Shown here in pieces: positions 2,621 through 32,330 of a stretch of 42,005 bases of DNA. Source of the stretch: a virus. The stretch covers positions 64,001 through 106,005 of IMG/VR virus record IMGVR_UViG_3300037088_000812; one strand, written 5' to 3'. The stretch's first letter is position 1. Each line of letters begins with the position of its first letter. The position numbers and the translations under genes were made by a program. The notes under the pieces were generated by a model. That model was not told the origin of the DNA and did no database searches. It was given only the letters and a program-made list of their open reading frames with translations.

Positions 2621-3016
2621 ATGAGATACAATTTCGATCTTTTCGATCCAGACGTTTTCAACTACGCATTTGGAAAGTTTTTTGACAACGGTTTGTTCAA
2701 CCGTATATTTGACCTTGACGAAGATATACCTCTTCGAGGTCTTATGAAGCAAACTGATACCGGTTATGCTGTAAAAGTTGAAGTGCCTGGATTCGACAAA
2801 GAAAACATCAAGGTTACTTACAACAGGCCATATCTAATGGTGAACGCCGAACAGACAGATGGCGAAGTAGTCAGGAAGTATTCCTATAAGACTTTCCTAC
2901 CAAACATCGACGTCAACGCAATCGACTCAAGCCTGAAAAACGGTGTCCTTACTTTAGCTTTGCCCAAGAAAGCCGAAGATCAACCCAAGCCAATTGACAT
3001 TAAAGTGAACGAATAA
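2621..3016 (+). CDS. Hsp20/alpha-crystallin family small heat-shock protein
   Basis: AAGGAGG RBS at 2609-2615. Alpha-crystallin domain pattern DTGYAVKVEVPGFDKENIKV ... GVLTLALPK. Confidence 0.8.
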   Translation: MRYNFDLFDPDVFNYAFGKFFDNGLFNRIFDLDEDIPLRGLMKQTDTGYAVKVEVPGFDKENIKVTYNRPYLMVNAEQTDGEVVRKYSYKTFLPNIDVNAIDSSLKNGVLTLALPKKAEDQPKPIDIKVNE

Positions 3017-3026
3017 CAAACTTTTA

Positions 3027-3051
3027 GGGCCGCCGCAATGCGGCCCTTTTT
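3027..3051 (+). terminator. Rho-independent terminator (GGGCCGC-cgcaat-GCGGCCC + TTTTT)
   Basis: Perfect 7-bp GC stem, 6-nt loop, then T5, directly after the Hsp20 stop. Confidence 0.7.
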
Positions 3052-3070
3052 GTGTGAGCATAATTCTAAT

Positions 3071-3256
3071 ATGGACAAGATCATAACCAAGAACTTGTTG
3101 AAGGACCATACATGTCAAAATTGTGAACTCTTCTATTCAATTGGAAGTTGTCCAAATTCAAGTCTAATAAAAAGACAAAGAGATTTTGATTCAGTAATGT
3201 TTTCTTGCGAACAATGGCATGAAGATAGAGGTGATGGACTGAGTTGGTTATTTTAA
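3071..3256 (+). CDS. Small Cys4 protein, paralog family member 2 (KNLLKDHTCQNC...CEQWHE)
   Basis: Track ORF 3038-3256, but its first ATG lies inside the terminator stem. Start more likely ATG 3071 (MDKIITKNLLKDH). Confidence 0.5.
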   Translation: MDKIITKNLLKDHTCQNCELFYSIGSCPNSSLIKRQRDFDSVMFSCEQWHEDRGDGLSWLF

Positions 3257-3641: not shown

Positions 3642-4205
3642 ATGTTCGTAATAGAAGGTGTCCGCTGTAGTGGGAAAAGCTTTACAGTAGATGTAATAAA
3701 AAGGAATTTCCCAAACGTGTGCGTATATAAAGATGTAGGATTGCGACTAGCTTCAGAGCGTCAATTAGATTTAGACGATTATGCTATTGGTAGAGATTTA
3801 ACTTACGCTCAAGCCTTGCCAGCATTAATGGATGACCACCTAACCGATACTGCCGTCTTCGATAGAATGTATTTTTCTTCTTATGTTTACGGAATAGCTT
3901 GGCGAAAAGGTGATAAACTGTTCTGGAAAGAACACATTGAATTAATAGAGAATATGTATGGCGACTTTCTTAAAAAAATCCACTTCATACTTTTAGACTT
4001 ACCCACCGATGCAGAACTAGATCGAATAAAGAAGATGCGTCGTCAAAAGGACAAGTGGGATAAGACGCTAGATTTCAAACGTCAGTATAGATTATATCTC
4101 GAAATCGTAAACAAAATCACTAAAGCTAAAGTGTCTTTTTTACCATCTTTTCAAAGCGAAGACTTTATAGTGAAGTTCTTTAAGGAAGTCTTTAGCCCTA
4201 GATAA
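3642..4205 (+). CDS. Deoxynucleoside monophosphate kinase, T4 gp1-like
   Basis: P-loop GVRCSGKS matches gp1 GVKRSGKD (GxxxxGK[ST] with Arg-Ser). An FDRMY motif is also shared with gp1. RBS AGAGG lies upstream. Confidence 0.7.
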   Translation: MFVIEGVRCSGKSFTVDVIKRNFPNVCVYKDVGLRLASERQLDLDDYAIGRDLTYAQALPALMDDHLTDTAVFDRMYFSSYVYGIAWRKGDKLFWKEHIELIENMYGDFLKKIHFILLDLPTDAELDRIKKMRRQKDKWDKTLDFKRQYRLYLEIVNKITKAKVSFLPSFQSEDFIVKFFKEVFSPR

Positions 4206-4211
4206 GATAAT
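4204..4211 (+). promoter_or_regulatory. AAGATAAT box (GATAAGATAATCTC) 3 nt upstream of ATG 4215
   Basis: Member of the recurrent start-proximal motif; no SD in between. Confidence 0.45.
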
Positions 4212-4214
4212 CTC

Positions 4215-4568
4215 ATGGGTTTATTCGGATTCAAGCCTTATGGCTTTACAGCTCCATATAAGCAGCATGAAGGTAAGTTAGTAGTATCAGCTTATAATAG
4301 TAAAAACTTCAAAGACGCTCTTGGTGTAGACAAAGTATACTTAGTAAAATTTACAAATCAGAATAAAAATCAAGTTGCTTATTTGGGCGTCAAATTTACT
4401 GTAGAAGCCGCGAAACATGGTAATCCAGCAATATCTGAACAAGAAGTGAGAGATATGTGGTTTCCGAAATCTACGGCTACAGGCTCTAAATCTAAAAACT
4501 GGTACAAGCTTACAGTCTTAACTAGCGCTGATAAAAAAGAAATATTCAGAGCAATTTTCAACCAATAG
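4215..4568 (+). CDS. hypothetical protein
   Basis: ORF immediately after the AAGATAATCTC box. Spurious-looking minus shadow ORF 4379-4561. Confidence 0.5.
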   Translation: MGLFGFKPYGFTAPYKQHEGKLVVSAYNSKNFKDALGVDKVYLVKFTNQNKNQVAYLGVKFTVEAAKHGNPAISEQEVRDMWFPKSTATGSKSKNWYKLTVLTSADKKEIFRAIFNQ

Positions 4569-4644: not shown

Positions 4645-5184
4645 ATGGAAACAAATGACTACATCAATATTTTAAATCATATGCAGATCGGTGAGGATAG
4701 ATCAGAAGGTGGCTATAAGGGCCTTGCTACTAGACTATCTAACGATCTTGGCAGAGATATATCACCAGGAGCCGTTAAAAGCTATTTAAAGAAAAAGGAA
4801 AAGACGGCTGCTGTCAGAGACATAAAGCATAGAGCAAAAAGGGCTCGAAGTGAAGGTGCTTATAAATATGGCTCCAGTGGAGCCGTCTATAAGATGCTTA
4901 TAGGCCACTTTGATGAAGGCATCGAGTATAATCTAGAAGACATCGAAAGAGCCGAACTAGAAGAAGCAGTTAAAGAAGTAAAAAGTAAACACCCTGGTCT
5001 TAAACACGTATCTGCTAAGACGAGGAGTGAAACTGTAAAGAAAGCCAAGAAAGGCGAAAAAATTGGTGAGGGTGGCTTTAAAGCAGTTGAAGCCAAAGCA
5101 GCTAAGAGGTACGGCAGCGAAAAGTCAGGCAAAAGAGTGGCTGCTGCAGCCATGTGGAAAATGAAAAAGCTTAGGGGAAAATAA
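4645..5184 (+). CDS. Lys-rich basic protein (possible nucleic-acid-binding/virion protein)
   Basis: TAAGGAG RBS. About 20% K/R with a K-rich C-terminus. Confidence 0.5.
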   Translation: METNDYINILNHMQIGEDRSEGGYKGLATRLSNDLGRDISPGAVKSYLKKKEKTAAVRDIKHRAKRARSEGAYKYGSSGAVYKMLIGHFDEGIEYNLEDIERAELEEAVKEVKSKHPGLKHVSAKTRSETVKKAKKGEKIGEGGFKAVEAKAAKRYGSEKSGKRVAAAAMWKMKKLRGK

Positions 5185-5269
5185 TCTCGGAATAAGCGAT
5201 AATATTCTAATATATAGTCGTACGCCGCTGTCATAAAAGCGGCATGACTCCATGGAGAGGTAGTAGGTT

Positions 5270-6061
5270 GTGAACAATAAAGAGAAAATAATTATAAGGC
5301 TTATGACGCTCTGGGCTATAATAATGGCAGGGGCCGTTAAGCTTTGGGATAGTATTGTTAAACTTTTTGAAAATAAAAAAACTACACCTGCAACTACCAC
5401 GACTCCCAAAGCAACATTAACTGGTACGGCAGTTACGACATCAGTTGCAATACCAACTCCAACTCCAACACCAATTCCGGCGCCGGCATCACCAGCCCCA
5501 GTATCTTCTACAACTGGTAATAAAGTAGCCAACGTTATAGAAAAAATACTCCAGCTGATTGAAAAACACTGGAAAACAGTTTTGATAATTTTTGGTATCA
5601 TCATCATATTAGGAGCTGTAAATGAAATTTTTAGTTGCAGTATTAATAATAATCTTAAGCACGACATCTCTAGTCTTCAGTCAACAAACGCAGCCCTTGC
5701 CGCAACCAACTCCAACCTCACAAACAGTAACGCCGGACTCTCAGCCGACAATGCAAAGCTTACTACAGACAATGCCAGCCTCAAGTCAAACAATAACGAT
5801 CTCAAGGCAAACATTGCAAAGCTGGATGAACAAATTAGACAAAGCGCTGAGCTTGTTAAAAGACTCCAAGGCGACTATAAGCAACTTGCAGAACAGCTTG
5901 CAAGAAGCGAAAGTGATAGAGCTGAACTTGAAAAACGAATTAACCAAAGCTCAGGATTCACTGACCAGCTCAGCAGCGACAATACAGACATTACAGGAAT
6001 TGTTAGCGACGTCAGGGACAGTATCGGCCGCGCTCTCAGCCAAGATCCAGGAACAAAGTAA
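5270..6061 (+). CDS. Membrane protein with two TM helices, a Pro/Thr linker and a C-terminal coiled coil
   Basis: GGAGAGG RBS before the GTG start. Overlaps the next gene's frame for 440 nt. Confidence 0.45.
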   Translation: MNNKEKIIIRLMTLWAIIMAGAVKLWDSIVKLFENKKTTPATTTTPKATLTGTAVTTSVAIPTPTPTPIPAPASPAPVSSTTGNKVANVIEKILQLIEKHWKTVLIIFGIIIILGAVNEIFSCSINNNLKHDISSLQSTNAALAATNSNLTNSNAGLSADNAKLTTDNASLKSNNNDLKANIAKLDEQIRQSAELVKRLQGDYKQLAEQLARSESDRAELEKRINQSSGFTDQLSSDNTDITGIVSDVRDSIGRALSQDPGTK

Positions 6062-6290
6062 TCTAATAGATAGTCAAGGAATTACTATAGCCGACCAAGG
6101 TAAGAAAATAACTGACCAAGGTAAAACCATAGCAGACCAGAAGGCTCTTATAGCCCAACAAGGTACTGATATAGCTAATGTAGCTAAAGACGTCAAATCC
6201 CTACAAAACGAAAACACTATTCTAACTATAGGCGTTATTACATTGGGCATTACTACTGTAGCCGGTGTAGTTTGGGCATTAGTAAAATGA
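5622..6290 (+). CDS. Secreted/membrane-anchored coiled-coil repeat protein (signal-peptide-like N-terminus, C-terminal TM anchor, ITIADQGK-type repeats)
   Basis: GGAG RBS 6 nt upstream. N-terminal MKFLVAVLIIILSTTSLVFS and C-terminal ILTIGVITLGITTVAGVVWALVK. Confidence 0.45.
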   Translation: MKFLVAVLIIILSTTSLVFSQQTQPLPQPTPTSQTVTPDSQPTMQSLLQTMPASSQTITISRQTLQSWMNKLDKALSLLKDSKATISNLQNSLQEAKVIELNLKNELTKAQDSLTSSAATIQTLQELLATSGTVSAALSAKIQEQSNLIDSQGITIADQGKKITDQGKTIADQKALIAQQGTDIANVAKDVKSLQNENTILTIGVITLGITTVAGVVWALVK

Positions 6291-7171: not shown

Positions 7172-7627
7172 ATGAGAAAGCGAGAATGGCACTATTTGTT
7201 GCCGCCAGCTGCATTTGAGCTGCGCTGCAATATTTGTAGTGGCGGCCGCGTTTGGTGGTCTGAATACGAACATATGATTTTTTGCTTCGACTGTCAGCTA
7301 GATGTTGACGGCACTGAGTCACTATTTGATGGGCCCATTCTACTTAAAACCTCTTATCTTTTAGGTCTTAACTTTGACAGGTACAATTTAACGACAAATC
7401 AGATTGAAAGACTTAACTTAGAAAAAAGCGATGTAGATGGTATCAAAGAATTAATCTATGATGATCCAAAAGAAGTAGAAAGAAACAAAGTCCTTGCTAA
7501 AGAACGCACAATAGAATTGTTGAAGACTGGCGAAGAAATTCTAGATCCCTATGGCGAAGGACTTAATCGATACGGCAAGAAGTATTTTAAACTTGTGCCA
7601 GGGGAGAAAGAAGATGGACAAACATGA
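7172..7627 (+). CDS. hypothetical zinc-ribbon protein (CNICSGG...CFDCQ)
   Basis: CxxC...CxxC pair near the N-terminus. Confidence 0.45.
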   Translation: MRKREWHYLLPPAAFELRCNICSGGRVWWSEYEHMIFCFDCQLDVDGTESLFDGPILLKTSYLLGLNFDRYNLTTNQIERLNLEKSDVDGIKELIYDDPKEVERNKVLAKERTIELLKTGEEILDPYGEGLNRYGKKYFKLVPGEKEDGQT

Positions 7628-8048
7628 TGTTATATTTGAACTCAAAAGAAAGGCAGCAATTTCGTTGTACCCTGACTTTGACGGAACTGAAAGCGACTAT
7701 CAACCAATAGTCGATCTGTTCGGTGACGTCGTCCTTCAAGTACAAGACGAAGATTACCAGGGCGATACTTGGGTTCTTTATAAAAGAGGAGAAACACGCT
7801 ACGGCCGACTTGAGTTTGGATGGGGCTCATGTTCAGGATGCGATGCGCTCCAAGCCTGTGGCTCATTAGGTGAAATCGACCAGTTGATAAATGAACTGTA
7901 TAACAGCATAGAATGGTTTGATGACGCTTCCGTTGCATTAAAATATTTCAAAGAACATAATGCAGATGAAGATATCGGTGGCAACGACAAAGCATTTACT
8001 GAAAAGGCAATAGAGTTACTTGAGGCCGTAGTTGGAAAAAAAGCGTAG
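7614..8048 (+). CDS. hypothetical protein (GWGSCSGCDALQACG motif)
   Basis: GGGGAGAAAG RBS before ATG 7614. The track's 7551 start overlaps the upstream gene. Confidence 0.45.
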   Translation: MDKHDVIFELKRKAAISLYPDFDGTESDYQPIVDLFGDVVLQVQDEDYQGDTWVLYKRGETRYGRLEFGWGSCSGCDALQACGSLGEIDQLINELYNSIEWFDDASVALKYFKEHNADEDIGGNDKAFTEKAIELLEAVVGKKA

Positions 8049-8938: not shown

Positions 8939-9575
8939 TTGGTCTTTGATCTTATGTATTATTTACTGGGCAATATTTGCCTCCTCATTTGTATTTCCTT
9001 CGTTTAAGAAAACACCGATCTACTCAATAAGTCTAACATCGATTATAGTAGTCCAACTAGGGGGTGTAGGCAAAACAGTTTACAAAAGATGGCGAAAGAA
9101 GCATCCTACAAAAAAGACCATAGCTCTTAACCTCTTATCAGATAAACCAAAGCCAGATAGTGTGTGGCGCAGCTTTGACGATAGAATTACAAAAATCTAT
9201 GATACTCTTGGTCAAGTAAGTTGCGTCTCAATTAAATTAAATAATCGAAGATGTAAAATGTACATGTATCATAATGGTTTTCTTCGTTCTATTAGAATAG
9301 AACATAGAGGATTTGAAGAATGGTTTTCTTGGTTAAATGATATTAAATGCCACTTCTTTGAAAAGAAAAATACGAAATGTGCTCAATGGAAATCATGGTT
9401 TGCTAACGGCGAAATACAACAAAACGGCTGGATGAATAAAGAGGGTGATTGTATAACTTACCCACATATGACAGACGACAAGTTTGTTAACTCTCTAATA
9501 TTTAAAGACGGCTATGCATTAGGTCCTGATATGAAATATTACCCAGATGAAGATGAAGGATATGACGCAATTTAA
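8895..9575 (+). CDS. Membrane protein with C-terminal MORN-like repeats
   Basis: Two N-terminal hydrophobic helices; C-terminus WFANGEIQQNGWMNKEGDCITY... Confidence 0.5.
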   Translation: MKIWMIYVKKFLKSNWSLILCIIYWAIFASSFVFPSFKKTPIYSISLTSIIVVQLGGVGKTVYKRWRKKHPTKKTIALNLLSDKPKPDSVWRSFDDRITKIYDTLGQVSCVSIKLNNRRCKMYMYHNGFLRSIRIEHRGFEEWFSWLNDIKCHFFEKKNTKCAQWKSWFANGEIQQNGWMNKEGDCITYPHMTDDKFVNSLIFKDGYALGPDMKYYPDEDEGYDAI

Positions 9576-9876
9576 TTTGACTGATTTTGAAACAATAAAA
9601 AATAAGTGGGTATACGACGTTAGGAATTATCGTAAGTTGCTCATAAAGCCGCTAGAGACGTTTTTTCATATCGATGGTGGAAACTGCTTATCGGTATTAA
9701 TTATTACAGGTTGGTGGCCTGGTGCAGGTGTTGATATGGAAGAAGCTCAGATAGAAAAAACTTGGATGACAGAAGAAAGGCTAAAATATCTCCAGATAGA
9801 TACAGATGTAGATCCAGACTTAGTGGCAAATTGTAAAAATCTTGAAACACGATGGTTACTGAGGGGCAACAACTAA
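9547..9876 (+). CDS. hypothetical protein
   Basis: ORF overlapping the upstream gene by 29 nt. Confidence 0.4.
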   Translation: MKMKDMTQFNLTDFETIKNKWVYDVRNYRKLLIKPLETFFHIDGGNCLSVLIITGWWPGAGVDMEEAQIEKTWMTEERLKYLQIDTDVDPDLVANCKNLETRWLLRGNN

Positions 9877-9909: not shown

Positions 9910-10641
9910 GTGAGAATATTTGCAAATCATCTTGAAGCTATTAAAGAATTATTACGTGAGTTGAAAGAACTATCTATTACTACGCCATTAAACCACTATC
10001 AAGATAAATGGGTAAAAGGTGATAAAAATTTCTATACTAAAGAATTAATCGGTTATACATATAAGGTAAGTGATGCTTCTGCTAAGCTCGATGAAATGGT
10101 AGAATTCCTTTACAAAGATGAAGCTAAACCAATCATTGAGTATTGCGAGCTTGAATTGCATGACCGCTTATCTGGCGAATCTAAAAATCCAGGCGATGCC
10201 CACAAATCAAGATATAGTCTTTGGGAAGAGTTCCTTGAGGATAAGCAGAAATTCAGCTATACCTATAGTGAAAGGATAAATGACCCCAAACTCGAAAAAA
10301 ATCAAATACAAACAATCATTGACGAACTAAAAACGTCACCTGATTCTCGACAAGCAATAGTACAAATCTATAACTACCTTTATGATTCAAAGAACATTGG
10401 CGGCAAACATAGAATACCGTGCTCAATGCATTATCAGTTCTTAATACGAAATAAGAAACTTCATGGTATTTATGTAATGCGATCTAACGACTTACTTACT
10501 CATTATGTAGTGGATATTTGGCTCGCTAGCAAGATCCAGATGCACATAGCTGAACAATTAGGAATAGGCGTAGGATCTTTCACCTATTTTTCTGGCAGTT
10601 TACATGCATATGCGAAAGACTTCCCGAAGTTTGTATTTTAA
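9910..10641 (+). CDS. Deoxycytidylate (dCMP) hydroxymethylase, T4 gp42-like (thymidylate synthase superfamily)
   Basis: SPDSRQAIVQIYN matches gp42 NPDSRRGIMIYTR. CSMHYQFLIRNKKLHGIYVMRSNDLLTHYVVD matches gp42 CTNTVQYLIRDKKINAVVNMRSNDVVFGFRND. GSLHAY matches GSLHVY. Catalytic Cys is present, and Asp replaces the TS Asn that specifies uracil. RBS TAGGAGAAAG; GTG start. Confidence 0.8.
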   Translation: MRIFANHLEAIKELLRELKELSITTPLNHYQDKWVKGDKNFYTKELIGYTYKVSDASAKLDEMVEFLYKDEAKPIIEYCELELHDRLSGESKNPGDAHKSRYSLWEEFLEDKQKFSYTYSERINDPKLEKNQIQTIIDELKTSPDSRQAIVQIYNYLYDSKNIGGKHRIPCSMHYQFLIRNKKLHGIYVMRSNDLLTHYVVDIWLASKIQMHIAEQLGIGVGSFTYFSGSLHAYAKDFPKFVF

Positions 10642-12276: not shown

Positions 12277-13209
12277 ATGTATTATCAAAATGACGACATC
12301 AATCGTATATACTTCAATGCAATCAGCGACCTATATCAATTAGGTAATCTAACTGGTAAAAGAAAAGAATTACCATTTTTAAATTTCACGCTCACAAACT
12401 CTGATAAAAATATTCTCTTAGCACCTATGTTTGCCCAACGTAATTGGCCGTGGATTTTAAGAGAATGCTCTGATAGGCTATTTAGTATAAAGAATCCAGG
12501 CATAGCTTTTCGTTATAGCAAGAACTGGGAAAACCGCCAAGAAGATTCGGGTTTATATTCCTACCACTATTCAGACCGGTTAAATGGTCAAATGAAAGAA
12601 CTATTGTCTAAGAATAAACATGGCCGAGATAAAATTGTGATGGTTTGGAACAAGGGAGACACAGGGATAGACGGTCGTCAACCTTGCACAATTTTCTTAC
12701 AACCATTTATGGAACACGATAACAAGATGAGTATGTTAGTTACTATGAGAAACAATGATATGATTAACATTTTTCCAAGCGACATATTCATTCATAGTTC
12801 TTATCTGAAATTTTGGTGCATAAAAAACAACATTGAATACAAGAACATCTACTGGGTATCAGCAATTGCATATTACCAAAAGAAACGAGATAAGATCAAG
12901 TTTGTAGACCGACTTATAAATCAATGGAATGGTAACTATGATAATATTCAAACTACTCACTGGGATAAAGATATAATAAACGACCTTGAGATCAAAGAAA
13001 CCATAGAAGCAAATGTCCGAGATGGAGGTAAGATTGAATTGATTAACGGTCTTAAGACACCATATGTCCGAGAATGGACTAACATCATGTTAATGGCTGA
13101 AGCTAAAATGCGAGACGACAAAGAGACATTTTCTCAGTTAAAGAACTTAACATGGACTACAGAGTTTGCTTTTATTCGTGATAGTTTACTCACCCAGAAG
13201 TTTCGATAG
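12277..13209 (+). CDS. Second thymidylate-synthase/dCMP-hydroxymethylase family paralog (pyrimidine C5-modifying enzyme, specificity unknown)
   Basis: DKIVMVWNKGD matches the TS RRIIVSAWNPAD block. QPCTIFLQPF carries the catalytic Cys. MRNNDMINIFPSDIF matches gp42 MRSNDVVFGFRNDY, again with Asp at the TS-Asn position. About 100-aa N-terminal extension. GGGGGAAG RBS. Confidence 0.65.
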   Translation: MYYQNDDINRIYFNAISDLYQLGNLTGKRKELPFLNFTLTNSDKNILLAPMFAQRNWPWILRECSDRLFSIKNPGIAFRYSKNWENRQEDSGLYSYHYSDRLNGQMKELLSKNKHGRDKIVMVWNKGDTGIDGRQPCTIFLQPFMEHDNKMSMLVTMRNNDMINIFPSDIFIHSSYLKFWCIKNNIEYKNIYWVSAIAYYQKKRDKIKFVDRLINQWNGNYDNIQTTHWDKDIINDLEIKETIEANVRDGGKIELINGLKTPYVREWTNIMLMAEAKMRDDKETFSQLKNLTWTTEFAFIRDSLLTQKFR

Positions 13210-27652: not shown

Positions 27653-28237
27653 ATGAAGAAGAAAATTAAACGACCGCAAACTAAAGAACAAAGGAAATTT
27701 GAGCGGGAAAAGAGAAACGCCCGTTACGGCAAACACTGGGATGAAATAAGACAATATGTTTACCAGCGTGATGGATTTATGTGCAGAGCGTGTGGAAAGG
27801 GCGTACCAGAAGTAAAGAAACTCAATGCCCATCATATACTTTTACTTAGAGTAAGTCAGACAAACGATATAAGAAACTTAGTTACGCTCTGCGACGAATG
27901 TCATAAAATAATAGAAACTAAAGCTCTTAATTTACTTAAGGCTGGCGGGCATAGATTTGAAGTTTTTAGAATGACGCACAGATATTTATATGAGTGTAAA
28001 TTAAAAAGACAACAAGCTCTGTTAGAAGAATTAAATAAAAAACATGGCGAGCCGAAGCCCGCCATAGAGTTAGATTATAAACCTAATGTTGCAGTTGTCG
28101 TAGATGGTCCTGATAGCTTAGGTGCAACCGCTGGTGCCGCTACTGGTGCTGGTGTCGCTGGGACTACCGGTGCTGGTACCGCTACTGGTGCTGGTGCCGC
28201 TACTGGTGCTGGTGGGACTACCGGTGCCGCGGGCTGA
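27653..28237 (+). CDS. HNH endonuclease with low-complexity Gly/Ala/Thr C-terminal tail
   Basis: CRACGK...NAHHILLLRVSQTNDIRNLVTLCDECH is an HNH motif. The tail is encoded by 9/18-nt tandem repeats and overlaps the convergent minus gene. Confidence 0.7.
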   Translation: MKKKIKRPQTKEQRKFEREKRNARYGKHWDEIRQYVYQRDGFMCRACGKGVPEVKKLNAHHILLLRVSQTNDIRNLVTLCDECHKIIETKALNLLKAGGHRFEVFRMTHRYLYECKLKRQQALLEELNKKHGEPKPAIELDYKPNVAVVVDGPDSLGATAGAATGAGVAGTTGAGTATGAGAATGAGGTTGAAG

Positions 28238-28425
28238 ATCGGTGCTACGACCTTTGGCTTTGAAGTAGCAATCACTTCTTGTATCGCAGCCTTAGCTCTG
28301 ACTTCTAATTCTTTAGCCATAGACTCTAATTTAACCTCAAGTTCCTTGGCTTTATTTTCTAGATTTTTAACATAGGCCTCAAGCTCAACCTCGTTAAAAA
28401 TCTTTCCACTAACGCTAATATTCAT
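28075..28425 (-). CDS. Coiled-coil protein with Pro/Ala/Val-rich (PAPV) repeat linker
   Basis: GGAGG RBS 5 nt before the ATG on the minus strand. AAGATAAT box (plus-strand coordinates 28443-28450) upstream. Confidence 0.5.
   Translation of the reverse strand: MNISVSGKIFNEVELEAYVKNLENKAKELEVKLESMAKELEVRAKAAIQEVIATSKPKVVAPIQPAAPVVPPAPVAAPAPVAVPAPVVPATPAPVAAPAVAPKLSGPSTTTATLGL
28121..28233. repeat. Tandem 9/18-nt repeat (ACTGGTGCTGGTGCCGCT-like) in the convergent overlap of the HNH gene and minus gene 28075-28425
   Basis: Direct reading: at least 6 imperfect units. Encodes (GA/T)n on + and (PAPVA)n on -. Confidence 0.8.
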
Positions 28426-31235: not shown

Positions 31236-31664
31236 ATGAAGTACCTATTTTTTACAAGTGTTTTCTTTCTTTTAGTTAGTGTGGCGGTCTTCGCACAGAA
31301 GATCGCAAAGGAATATCAAGGTACTTGGTATATAAATAATATGTCTACAGATGGCGGACAATCATATAGTGAATTTGATACCCCTAAGATAGCAGAGGTA
31401 GATTCAGATAAGATAATATTAGGTGAAGGTGATAAGCAAGTCACGTTAAATATAGAAAGCGTAGATAAGAGAGTAAATGAAGATGGAATTACCGCTTATT
31501 TAATATTGTTCAAAGAGGATAATGAAGCTTTCATAGTAATGACAGACGGTCATGATTATATGTTGGTAATAGCAGATAAGAACACTCACGTCGAAGCTAT
31601 AAGATGTAATATAACTAGAAATATGCCGTCGTTTAATGTGCCAAAGGTGGCAGACGGAGTTTAA
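31236..31664 (+). CDS. Secreted protein (cleavable signal-peptide-like N-terminus MKYLFFTSVFFLLVSVAVFAQ)
   Basis: Strong RBS; N-terminal signal peptide pattern. Confidence 0.55.
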   Translation: MKYLFFTSVFFLLVSVAVFAQKIAKEYQGTWYINNMSTDGGQSYSEFDTPKIAEVDSDKIILGEGDKQVTLNIESVDKRVNEDGITAYLILFKEDNEAFIVMTDGHDYMLVIADKNTHVEAIRCNITRNMPSFNVPKVADGV

Positions 31665-31982: not shown

Positions 31983-32019
31983 ATTGTGTGTTGTGTGTTA
32001 TTATCTATGACCGCCGTTA

Positions 32020-32330
32020 TGGCCGCCACTGTTGCCACCGTTATGGCCGCCACCGTTATGACCACTGCCACCTGGTGCTACAGCCATTTCCACTGTTTCC
32101 GCCGCCGTTATGACCACTGTTTCCGCCGCCGTTATGACCACTGTTTCCGCCGCCGTTATGACCGCCATCACAAGGAGGATGCGGTGGAGGACAAGGTGGC
32201 TTTGGCGGAGGACAAGGAGGTTTTGGTGGAGGACATGGAGGAGGTTTTGGTGGAGGACATGGAGGTGGACCTGGAGGAGGTGTTGGCCCAGGAGGCGTTG
32301 GAGTAGGACCGGGTCCTGGATTATGTCCTC
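32020..32330. repeat. Tandem nucleotide repeats (3 x 24 nt at 32091-32162, plus GGAGGACAAGG/TGG..TTTGG units 32170-32300)
   Basis: Direct reading of exact 24-nt units CACTGTTTCCGCCGCCGTTATGAC. Confidence 0.85.

Follow-up and report, generated by a model that had tools for sequence, protein, structure and literature searches.

Can one stretch of viral DNA encode two different membrane proteins in two frames of the same strand? This question is raised by positions 5270–6290 of a 42,005 nt stretch of DNA (the window) that corresponds to positions 64,001–106,005 of IMG/VR record IMGVR_UViG_3300037088_000812; positions are given in window numbering unless another locus is named. An initial annotation of the region had described a 440 nt same-strand overlap in which two frames stay open, and had left the choice between a genuine overprinted gene pair and a repeat-driven artefact. 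Inspection of the open reading frame (ORF) listing and the raw sequence confirmed both ORFs, here called A and B, and their coordinates:

5270–6061, plus strand: gene A, GTG start, 263 amino acids (aa)
5622–6290, plus strand: gene B, ATG start, 222 aa, in the +1 frame of A
5622–6061, plus strand: predicted dual-coding overlap of A and B, 440 nt, with signs of purifying selection in both frames from resampling and conservation

The two ORFs are very probably a genuine same-strand overlapping pair, in which A is translated from the GTG at 5270, B is predicted to be translated independently from the ATG at 5622, and the overlap is selected in both frames. Our overall best explanation, to which we give a probability of about 0.5, joins this dual-coding pair to two membrane proteins as its products, a spanin-like role and an ancestor in which the genes already overlapped.

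Both frames of the overlap

For the resampling test the amino acids of A were kept fixed and synonymous codons were redrawn with the codon usage of the window itself (20,000 resamples). Over the 146 codons of the overlap, 12.4 stop codons are expected in the +1 frame of A; none is seen, and not one of the 20,000 resamples was open. Three controls behave as expected: 21 stops occur in the +2 frame of the overlap and 13 in the +1 frame of the A-only part before B, and off-frame runs in the 38 other ORFs of the window stay open for at most 60 codons. The test was also run both ways, with A fixed and with B fixed, for the nine phage lineages in which the pair overlaps. In each of them 4–13 stops were expected and none was seen, with P(open) per lineage between <2e-4 and 0.014 (n = 9).

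As a second test, one codon-based nucleotide alignment was read in all three frames. Conservation at the three codon positions of A is 0.71, 0.84 and 0.57 in the A-only part, which is a wobble pattern, versus 0.73, 0.74 and 0.77 in the overlap, where the best-conserved position is the third of A and the second of B. The freedom of the third position is lost in the overlap. Translated over the shared overlap, the frames reach mean pairwise amino acid identities of 0.35 (A), 0.39 (B) and 0.28 (+2 control).

These data bear on the possibility that one frame is spurious and held open by the low-complexity or repeat composition of coiled-coil sequence. The composition of such sequences is biased, the codon usage of frame B over 5630–5960 resembles that of an off-frame, and an antisense ORF is also open across the proline/threonine (PT)-rich part of A. 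However, the 4–13 expected stops were calculated with protein and composition fixed and are missing in nine lineages in both directions, the +2 frame carries its expected 17–21 stops, the wobble pattern is gone in the overlap, and proteins of the B family were recovered independently by an exhaustive hidden Markov model (HMM) search. Tandem Repeats Finder (TRF) reported only a 6 nt PT repeat in the A-only linker and a 21 nt repeat in the B-only part, and none in the overlap. Resampling and codon-position conservation thus refute a spurious frame or repeat artefact, and we leave it practically no probability.

The antisense ORF (5125–5667, minus strand, 180 aa) lies opposite the N-terminal and PT-linker part of A and has a low-complexity translation (GAGDAGAGIGVGVGVG...). 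Rather than a gene, it is probably a side effect of the PT-repeat composition.

A comparison of codon usage between the two frames, a check proposed initially, would by itself have misleadingly marked B as non-coding over most of the overlap. By log-likelihood, frame A scores as coding up to approximately 5960 and frame B clearly so only from approximately 5990, and the last ~25 codons of A score as non-coding. From this crossover one could suspect a fusion by +1 frameshift or a B start located further downstream; the comparative data exclude both. In the first case the region would be a single gene with a +1 frameshift, due to sequencing error or programmed, whose product would be the N-terminal part of A fused to the C-terminal part of B, and a GAAAAAC run at 5931–5937 would suit such a reading as well. 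But the C-terminal 40 residues of A and the position of its stop are conserved in nine lineages from independent assemblies, and the start codon, ribosome binding site (RBS) and signal peptide of B are conserved 340–440 nt before the A stop. Moreover, frame B is open and exceeds the +2 control in conservation over the whole overlap, and in one lineage (L013) the two genes are separate and complete. With the A C-terminus and the B N-terminus both conserved, the fusion is effectively refuted and must be considered very improbable. A late internal start of B is ruled out because its internal ATGs have no Shine-Dalgarno (SD) sequence and its signal peptide is conserved. Taken together, the conservation tests and the separated genes of L013 argue for two selected, separate proteins.

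Translation signals and operon structure

The signals flanking the two genes are the following:

5254–5260, plus strand: SD-like sequence GGAGAGG, 9 nt 5′ of the GTG of A
5612–5615, plus strand: GGAG RBS of B, inside the Leu-Gly-Ala codons of A and 6 nt 5′ of the ATG of B
6287–6290, plus strand: ATGA, in which the TGA of B overlaps the ATG of the next gene (raw sequence)

The GGAG inside A is the RBS that the initial annotation had proposed for B. It reads taGGAGcygtaaATG in the window and in L001, and is replaced by a GGGGG run in L002/L003 and L005. An SD core is found at 16 of the 38 gene starts of the window versus 6.1% of internal ATGs; B's own ATG has one, and none of its three internal ATGs does. 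The final codons of the A transmembrane (TM) helix double as RBS and start codon of B.

For A, the GTG at 5270 is preferred to the ATG at 5303, since L001 has an in-frame TTG aligned with it, preceded by an SD-like GGGGTGG; the KEKI peptide is conserved. This choice is uncertain.

As the B stop and the following start codon share bases, the genes belong to one operon. The AAATGA junction after B is also present in L002/L003 and L004, and the stop and start overlap likewise in L010 and L011.

Upstream of the pair, between the stop of the preceding gene (5184) and the RBS of A, positions 5224–5243 contain a perfect 6 bp stem with an 8 nt loop (GCCGCT gtcataaa AGCGGC). With no T-run behind it, it does not qualify as a classic intrinsic terminator; a role in RNA processing or stability is possible.

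Homologous pairs in other phages

Homologous pairs were found in nine other metagenomic phage lineages with GC contents of 34–60%, and B is always in the +1 frame of A. Of the ten lineages, six, the window among them, have the overlapped layout, three an almost fully embedded one and one a separated one. In the nine overlapped lineages, whose loci range from 36% to 60% GC, identity to the window copy is 18–52% for A and 24–58% for B. Relatives that keep only one of the two ORFs, the outcome which had been named as refuting the pair, were looked for and did not occur: all nine overlapped lineages keep both ORFs in the same frame relation, and L013 has them as adjacent separate genes. The genuine overprinted pair, one of the two options of the initial annotation, is thereby supported.

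A search of 5.8 billion proteins returned the A homologues P0001 (265 aa) and P0002 (159 aa), as well as P0004 (158 aa), which was found with a profile. The C-terminal motif and the stop are kept: A of the window ends in ...SIGRALSQDPGTK, and the tails of P0001, P0002 and P0004 are ...AIGTALGRNSGTK, ...SIGRAISEGTGSRKANK and ...DIKSALGQDRPADSIDKNQ, respectively. Their contigs, L001, L002 and L004, all have an ATG at the identical site within the invariant A motif LGAVNEIFSCS, with GGAG or GGGGG ahead of it, from which the +1 frame stays open beyond the A stop; in the other overlapped loci, too, B starts at a conserved place and its frame extends past the end of A. The L002 phage encodes a full-length B, P0003. 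When 1.84 billion representative proteins were searched exhaustively with an HMM profile of B, P0006, P0007, P0008 and P0013 (163–171 aa) and fragments were identified. The contigs of these proteins have only B annotated, but in each of them an A homologue is encoded in the frame one base back. Further A homologues come from L005, L008, L010, L011, L012 and L013.

L005 and L012 carry overlapped pairs of long or medium form. In L008, L010 and L011 the starts of A and B are only 2–20 nt apart (e.g., AGGAGGATGAATG, ATGTG) and A is almost wholly nested in B; L008 is a ~49 kb phage contig with an SU10-type portal, which is also present in IMG/VR as L015. In L013 (GC 34%, a noisy long-read assembly), A ends in ...GTGAAGTAA and the ATG of B follows one base later; both genes were confirmed by tblastn. 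At L013 positions 3703–4562, an in-frame TGA in A (DIKLYK*TNTV) and a frameshift in B were observed, and DnaB of the same contig is split into three pieces. Assembly errors of the long reads are the most likely cause, TGA recoding being a less likely one.

The separate A and B of L013 are homologous to the others over regions that are dual-coding elsewhere. Since homology of this kind cannot survive a sliding of the genes against each other, the overlapped state appears to be ancestral, and the separated form would most simply stem from a duplication after which each copy lost one frame. As to the older frame, two measures point in different directions: codon usage favours A over most of the overlap, and B is better conserved there.

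Every gene call seen for the pair was wrong, with B truncated to 96–102 aa (P0005, P0010) or A left uncalled (L005, L008, L010, L011). Gene callers miss the pair, and the family has therefore gone unnoticed; it is invisible in current annotation. Among 50,697 deposited phage genomes, searched by blastn with the region and by tblastn with A from the window and L010 and B from L005, the family has no member. Scans of window A and B against Pfam, NCBIfam and PADLOC gave nothing above threshold, only coiled-coil noise (crescentin, SMC, JetC, LmuB, DivIC). Profiles of A and B run against IMG/VR, JGI metagenome contigs and GTDB genomes revealed nothing new, the single match being the IMG/VR copy of the L008 contig. 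Foldseek comparison of the AlphaFold2 (AF2) models of both proteins with BFVD was uninformative, as expected for long helices. The family is new, whereas nested spanin genes are well known.

Predicted architecture of protein A

Two parts of A stand out in the window:

5375–5518, plus strand: disordered linker rich in PT and PA (aa ~36–83), seen in AF2 (pLDDT, predicted local distance difference test, <50 for residues 35–85), TRF and the alignment
5570–5629, plus strand: conserved TM helix (aa ~101–120), TVLIIFGIIIILGAV, preceded by EKHWK and followed by NEIFSCS, seen in Kyte-Doolittle hydropathy, AF2 and as an invariant block

A is predicted to be a bitopic type II inner membrane protein (N-in, C-out), oriented according to the positive-inside rule. 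All lineages share a core in which a short N-terminus in the cytoplasm leads into a single TM helix, followed by a helical rod and a conserved tail (S.GF.G.I.SD...A.G(I/L)V..V...IGRALG....K). Hydropathy places a single TM segment immediately ahead of the coil in every A, and in the six long forms it is preceded by EKHWK, rich in K and H. The AF2 model is a single continuous helix from residue 101 to 258, with pLDDT >90 over ~130–220; the ectodomain defined by hydropathy has 138 residues, which corresponds to a rod of ~20 nm.

Two TM helices had been assigned to A initially. One of them, at residues ~101–120, is conserved; the other, an N-terminal hydrophobic helix, belongs to a lineage-specific extension. 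This additional amphipathic helix is found in the window, L001, L005 and L012 and is absent from five of the nine A proteins. The PT-rich linker that follows it is present in the window and L001, short in L005 and essentially absent from L012. The linker is lineage-specific and missing in short A forms; in the window it contains a 6 nt CCAACT repeat at 5453–5478 (TRF).

Predicted architecture of protein B

The corresponding parts of B are:

5622–5681, plus strand: signal peptide (aa 1–20), MKFLVAVLIIILSTTSLVFS followed by QQ, seen in the alignments and N-termini and predicted to be of the signal peptidase I type
6087–6139, plus strand: 21 nt (7 aa) tandem repeat, 2.5 copies, in the B-only part, which gives extra heptads (ITIADQGKKITDQGKTIADQ) (TRF)
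6216–6284, plus strand: C-terminal TM helix (aa ~199–221), seen in hydropathy, in the AF2 helix that continues into it and in conserved ends

B is predicted to be a Sec-exported type I protein (N-out, C-in) with a cleavable type I signal peptide and a C-terminal TM anchor. Family members are 152–222 aa long and mostly helical. The signal peptide of ~20 residues is followed in several lineages by a disordered stretch rich in P, S, T and Q (residues 18–60 in the window) and then by two helices; in the AF2 model the first spans 62–112, is separated by a short break at SLTSS from the second (118–221), and the latter runs into the C-terminal TM. The predicted cleavage site precedes Gln (S/G/A before Q) in eight of nine lineages, L011 having the variant HG/EQ. 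The cytoplasmic tail is very short, with one to three residues ending in Lys (...VWALVK in the window, ..VKR and ..VKK in L008 and L010), and the ends are conserved as ...GIIYGLVK/ALVKK. The proteins found by HMM search share this layout of signal peptide (then Gln in most), coiled coil and C-terminal TM, ending in ...YGLAK or ...ALVKK. The PT-rich linker, the NxxL-type coiled-coil region, the ITIADQGKKITDQGKTIADQ repeats and the signal peptide and C-terminal TM of B, all listed in the initial annotation, are present.

B contains no Cys anywhere in the window, L001, L002 and L004. The N-terminus of L008 B (L008 positions 10001–10075, GC 60%) carries a lipobox-like LLLAC/G, which would formally give a u-spanin layout. 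Its closest relative, L010, has ...GLPLCA/Q at this place, which is not a standard lipobox.

The window encodes a second exported protein (31236–31664, 142 aa) with a clear type I signal peptide much like that of B (MKYLFFTSVFFLLVSVAVFA, then QK; ...VFA/QK).

Length of the two rods

All insertions and deletions are multiples of seven residues (14, 21, 28). The rod of window A is 28 aa longer than that of L002 and L004, and the same insertion reads in the B frame as a non-helical P/T/Q linker. Compared with L002 and L004, window B in turn has insertions of 8 and 20, together 28 aa of coil, which lie in the B-only part and came about through the 21 nt tandem repeat. This is a hint that the two rods are matched in length, so that they would interact or span the same distance.

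A possible spanin-like role

What might two such proteins do? Several features point to a spanin-like function, namely the matches of A to Rz-like families, a partner in the +1 frame that occurs in three layouts, the recurrence of holin-like neighbours, the position at or in the tail fibre module in L005, L008 and L012, and the heptad-wise length changes. In addition, the window and ~70 kb of related loci contained no ORF with a lipobox, other than B of L008, that could serve as a canonical o- or u-spanin. Compared with 38,880 PHROG families, A matched phrog_739 (Rz-like spanin) in six of nine lineages (best E 3.9e-5), phrog_89 in three of nine and phrog_214 in one of nine; the Rz-like spanin PHROGs are the only families that A matches consistently. 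B matched phrog_1193 (hemolysin, XhlA-like) in two of nine lineages (best E 1e-4), and none of its PHROG matches is consistent across the family. The initial annotation had likened the nested arrangement to an i-spanin/o-spanin pair while pointing out that a lipobox Cys is missing; the phrog_739 matches of A and the Cys-free B of the window agree with both parts of this remark.

A partner gene in the +1 frame, in embedded, overlapped or separated position, is the genetic hallmark of two-component spanins (PMC6139136; PMC12894885). Like two-component spanins (lambda Rz/Rz1, P2 LysB/LysC, phiKZ gp141/gp141.1), the pair has in A an N-terminal TM with a long helical, coiled-coil periplasmic domain and in B a partner in the +1 frame that starts inside A, and it occurs in overlapped, near-embedded and separated layouts (PMC6139136; PMC12894885). 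The mature N-terminus of B is P/S/T-rich in several lineages, similar to Rz1. In contrast to o-spanins, which have a lipobox Cys, B is devoid of one in eight of nine lineages; it measures 152–222 aa, is mostly helical and carries a C-terminal TM that would place it in the inner membrane; the short, largely unstructured periplasmic domain without TM helix typical of o-spanins is not found in it. The pair further differs from two-component spanins in the extent of the overlap (335–440 nt, up to ~95% of A), in compact forms that nest A inside B, and in having neither a conserved periplasmic Cys pair nor an adjoining endolysin.

B resembles u-spanins (T1 gp11 type) in its layout, with a secretion signal at the N-terminus, a TM domain at the C-terminus and a periplasmic domain between them, and, in the window lineage and those closest to it, in having no periplasmic Cys (PMC6139136); B of L008 even has LLLAC/G. 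Unlike u-spanins, B has no outer membrane lipoprotein signal in eight of nine lineages, it is alpha-helical instead of having a beta-rich domain, and it is paired with A in all ten lineages, whereas u-spanins act alone. B thus fails the definitions of both o-spanin and u-spanin. A preprint on the Shewanella phage LambdaSo, which speaks of "no obvious spanin", in fact describes a canonical nested Rz/Rz1 pair.

The pair also resembles other viral same-strand overprinted genes in having two conserved ORFs, lost third-position freedom and one frame with atypical codon usage. It is unlike them in that both products are bitopic membrane coiled coils of opposite topology, that indels preserve the heptads in both frames, and that the family includes a derived separated version (L013).

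We tentatively propose that A and B form a non-canonical spanin-like envelope complex that takes part in lysis. The extracytoplasmic coiled coils of both proteins would assemble into a length-matched, hetero-oligomeric periplasmic rod, and the complex would accumulate in the envelope and, in the manner of a two-component spanin, carry out the last step of lysis. Once holin and endolysin have lifted the constraint of the wall, it would shift its conformation and destroy the remaining envelope barrier. It is the distal ends, the conserved C-terminal tail of A and the P/S/T-rich N-terminus of B, that would have to touch the outer layer. More speculatively, the pair might represent a new two-component spanin-type class, whose second component is not an outer membrane lipoprotein but a coiled-coil protein that is Sec-exported, anchored at its C-terminus and encoded in the +1 frame over nearly the full length of the i-spanin-like gene.

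A spanin-like role would bear on how the ~13% of surveyed genomes from phages of Gram-negative hosts in which no spanin was identifiable (PMC6139136) breach the outer membrane. Kongari et al. (2018) themselves stated that a partner architecture independent of a lipoprotein would escape their criteria. If the pair does form a new class, disruption of the last envelope layer could proceed without a lipoprotein, which could explain some of the "spanin-less" phages, and the overlap would be among the longest conserved same-strand dual-coding regions known in tailed phages. The region itself is a clean and statistically strong dual-coding region of 335–440 nt, kept across phages that differ in composition and type, with two predicted structured membrane proteins as products. 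It is useful for studying how two coiled-coil heptad patterns fit into one stretch of DNA.

Genomic context and host

The window has ~37% GC and nearly all its genes are on the plus strand. They include thymidylate kinase, two thymidylate-synthase-like genes, a gp32-type single-stranded DNA-binding protein, an exonuclease, Hsp20 and an HNH endonuclease. The gp32 is ~28% identical to cyanomyophage gp32, and the phage is only very distantly related to T4-like phages.

Elsewhere, small genes with one or two TM helices, holin-like in appearance, lie directly upstream of the pair in L005, L008, L011 and L012, with no family assignment above threshold. In L005 and L012 the pair ends a late operon, after tail fibre genes, a 75 aa protein with two TM helices (L012) and an XhlA-like protein of 88–92 aa. 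The latter (L005 positions 9503–9769, L012 positions 2910–3188; MTQQERDVL.../MTQDEHDML...) is conserved, directly upstream of the pair, and consists of a helical N-terminal part and a C-terminal TM; its match to the XhlA/hemolysin family phrog_1193 is weak (E 0.018). This protein and the 75 aa protein of L012 are possible holin-type partners. In L008 the pair is located among tail fibre genes, right after a 31 aa TM peptide and a 59 aa protein with two TM helices, and in L011 a small multi-TM protein is encoded just upstream.

A 140 aa DUF261 protein (35.7 bits, Pfam gathering threshold 26.1) is encoded three genes upstream of the pair in L008 (positions 9271–9693). The DUF261 family is known mainly from Borrelia. 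Text matches for DUF261 in the literature turned out to be DUF2612.

A diderm host is weakly suggested by the short signal peptides and by the gp32 relatives, most of the detectable ones being from phages of diderm hosts. tblastn with the L008 portal, the 535 aa protein of L005 and the 613 aa protein of the window gave no useful host signal, with one distant match to a Methanomicrobiales-associated virus.

Arguments against a spanin-like role and alternative functions

A number of observations weigh against a spanin-like complex. The lipobox that defines o- and u-spanins is missing from B in eight of nine lineages, and since both anchors are apparently in the inner membrane, there is no obvious link to the outer membrane. 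The periplasmic Cys of two-component spanins is absent from B; A has a single Cys at the boundary between TM and periplasm (FSCS) in five of nine lineages (window, L001, L002, L004, L005), has its sole Cys residues within the TM helix in L008 and L010, and has none in L011 and L012 (two of nine). The similarity of A to spanin PHROGs is weak (E at least 3.9e-5), is confined to the coiled coil and could be compositional, and tblastn of A in the 50,697 phage genomes found no match. The covariation in rod length comes from one lineage only. In the window, the pair sits amid nucleotide metabolism and early-type genes, and no recognised endolysin adjoins it in any locus, including a PHROG scan of 60 neighbouring genes that found tail and head genes. 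The only endolysin-type gene in the vicinity is an M23 peptidase of L002 (780–1604, minus strand), which is 4.5 kb away on the opposite strand; most simply, all PHROG endolysin and peptidase matches among the neighbours are this single gene. Finally, no prophage copy that would point to a host, and thereby to its envelope type, was found in GTDB genomes, and there are no close cultured relatives.

Some of these points would suit a real overlapping pair with another role in the envelope, such as superinfection exclusion, interference with the divisome by mimicry of FtsB/FtsL/DivIC, or regulation of lysis timing. The missing endolysin, the surrounding early nucleotide metabolism genes of the window and two predicted inner membrane anchors without a lipid anchor on B can all be read in this way, as can weak sub-threshold matches of A to DivIC, ZapB and ZapG-like models and the position next to tail fibre genes, which is also typical of morons and exclusion genes. 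Conservation of the pair across a T4-like large phage, the ~49 kb phage with the SU10-type portal and others (GC 34–60%), however, suits a core function better than an accessory one. The Pfam matches are far under their thresholds and amount to generic coiled-coil noise, and the only families matched consistently are Rz-like spanins. An early location also has a precedent, as the T4 spanin genes pseT.3/pseT.2 lie outside a lysis cassette in an early region. Another envelope role is, in our view, quite possible, though somewhat less likely than the spanin-like one.

A different alternative starts from the host. If the hosts were monoderm, or had no classical outer membrane, A and B could be an accessory membrane factor of lysis of the XhlA kind that aids the holin. 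The phrog_1193 matches of B point in this direction, as do the separate XhlA-like gene directly upstream in L005 and L012 and the use of strong SD sites; as in XhlA-type proteins, the coiled coil of B runs directly into a C-terminal TM. But B has a short cleavable signal peptide of the Gram-negative type, which would make its coil extracytoplasmic, whereas XhlA proteins have no signal peptide. B is also twice as long, its PHROG matches are weak and inconsistent across the family, and the relatives of the window gp32 are mostly in phages of diderm hosts. We consider an XhlA-like role unlikely and retain the spanin-like complex as our working model.

Other observations in the window

Two thymidylate-synthase-like genes (9910–10641 and 12277–13209) match phrog_160 with E values of 2e-32 and 3e-9, respectively, and thymidylate kinase is encoded at 3642–4205. 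One of the two may be an enzyme of the deoxynucleoside monophosphate hydroxymethylase type, which would hint at modified bases. Repetitive translations are given by the ORFs at 31986–32306 (HCFRRRYD three times, with MAATVATVMAATVM) and 28122–28268 (PLLVLV repeats); they may be unusual small proteins, or else spurious readings of repetitive DNA. Another same-strand overlap, of 77 nt, is formed by two ORFs of 150–165 aa (7172–7627 and 7551–8048), where the true start of the second ORF may be located further downstream.

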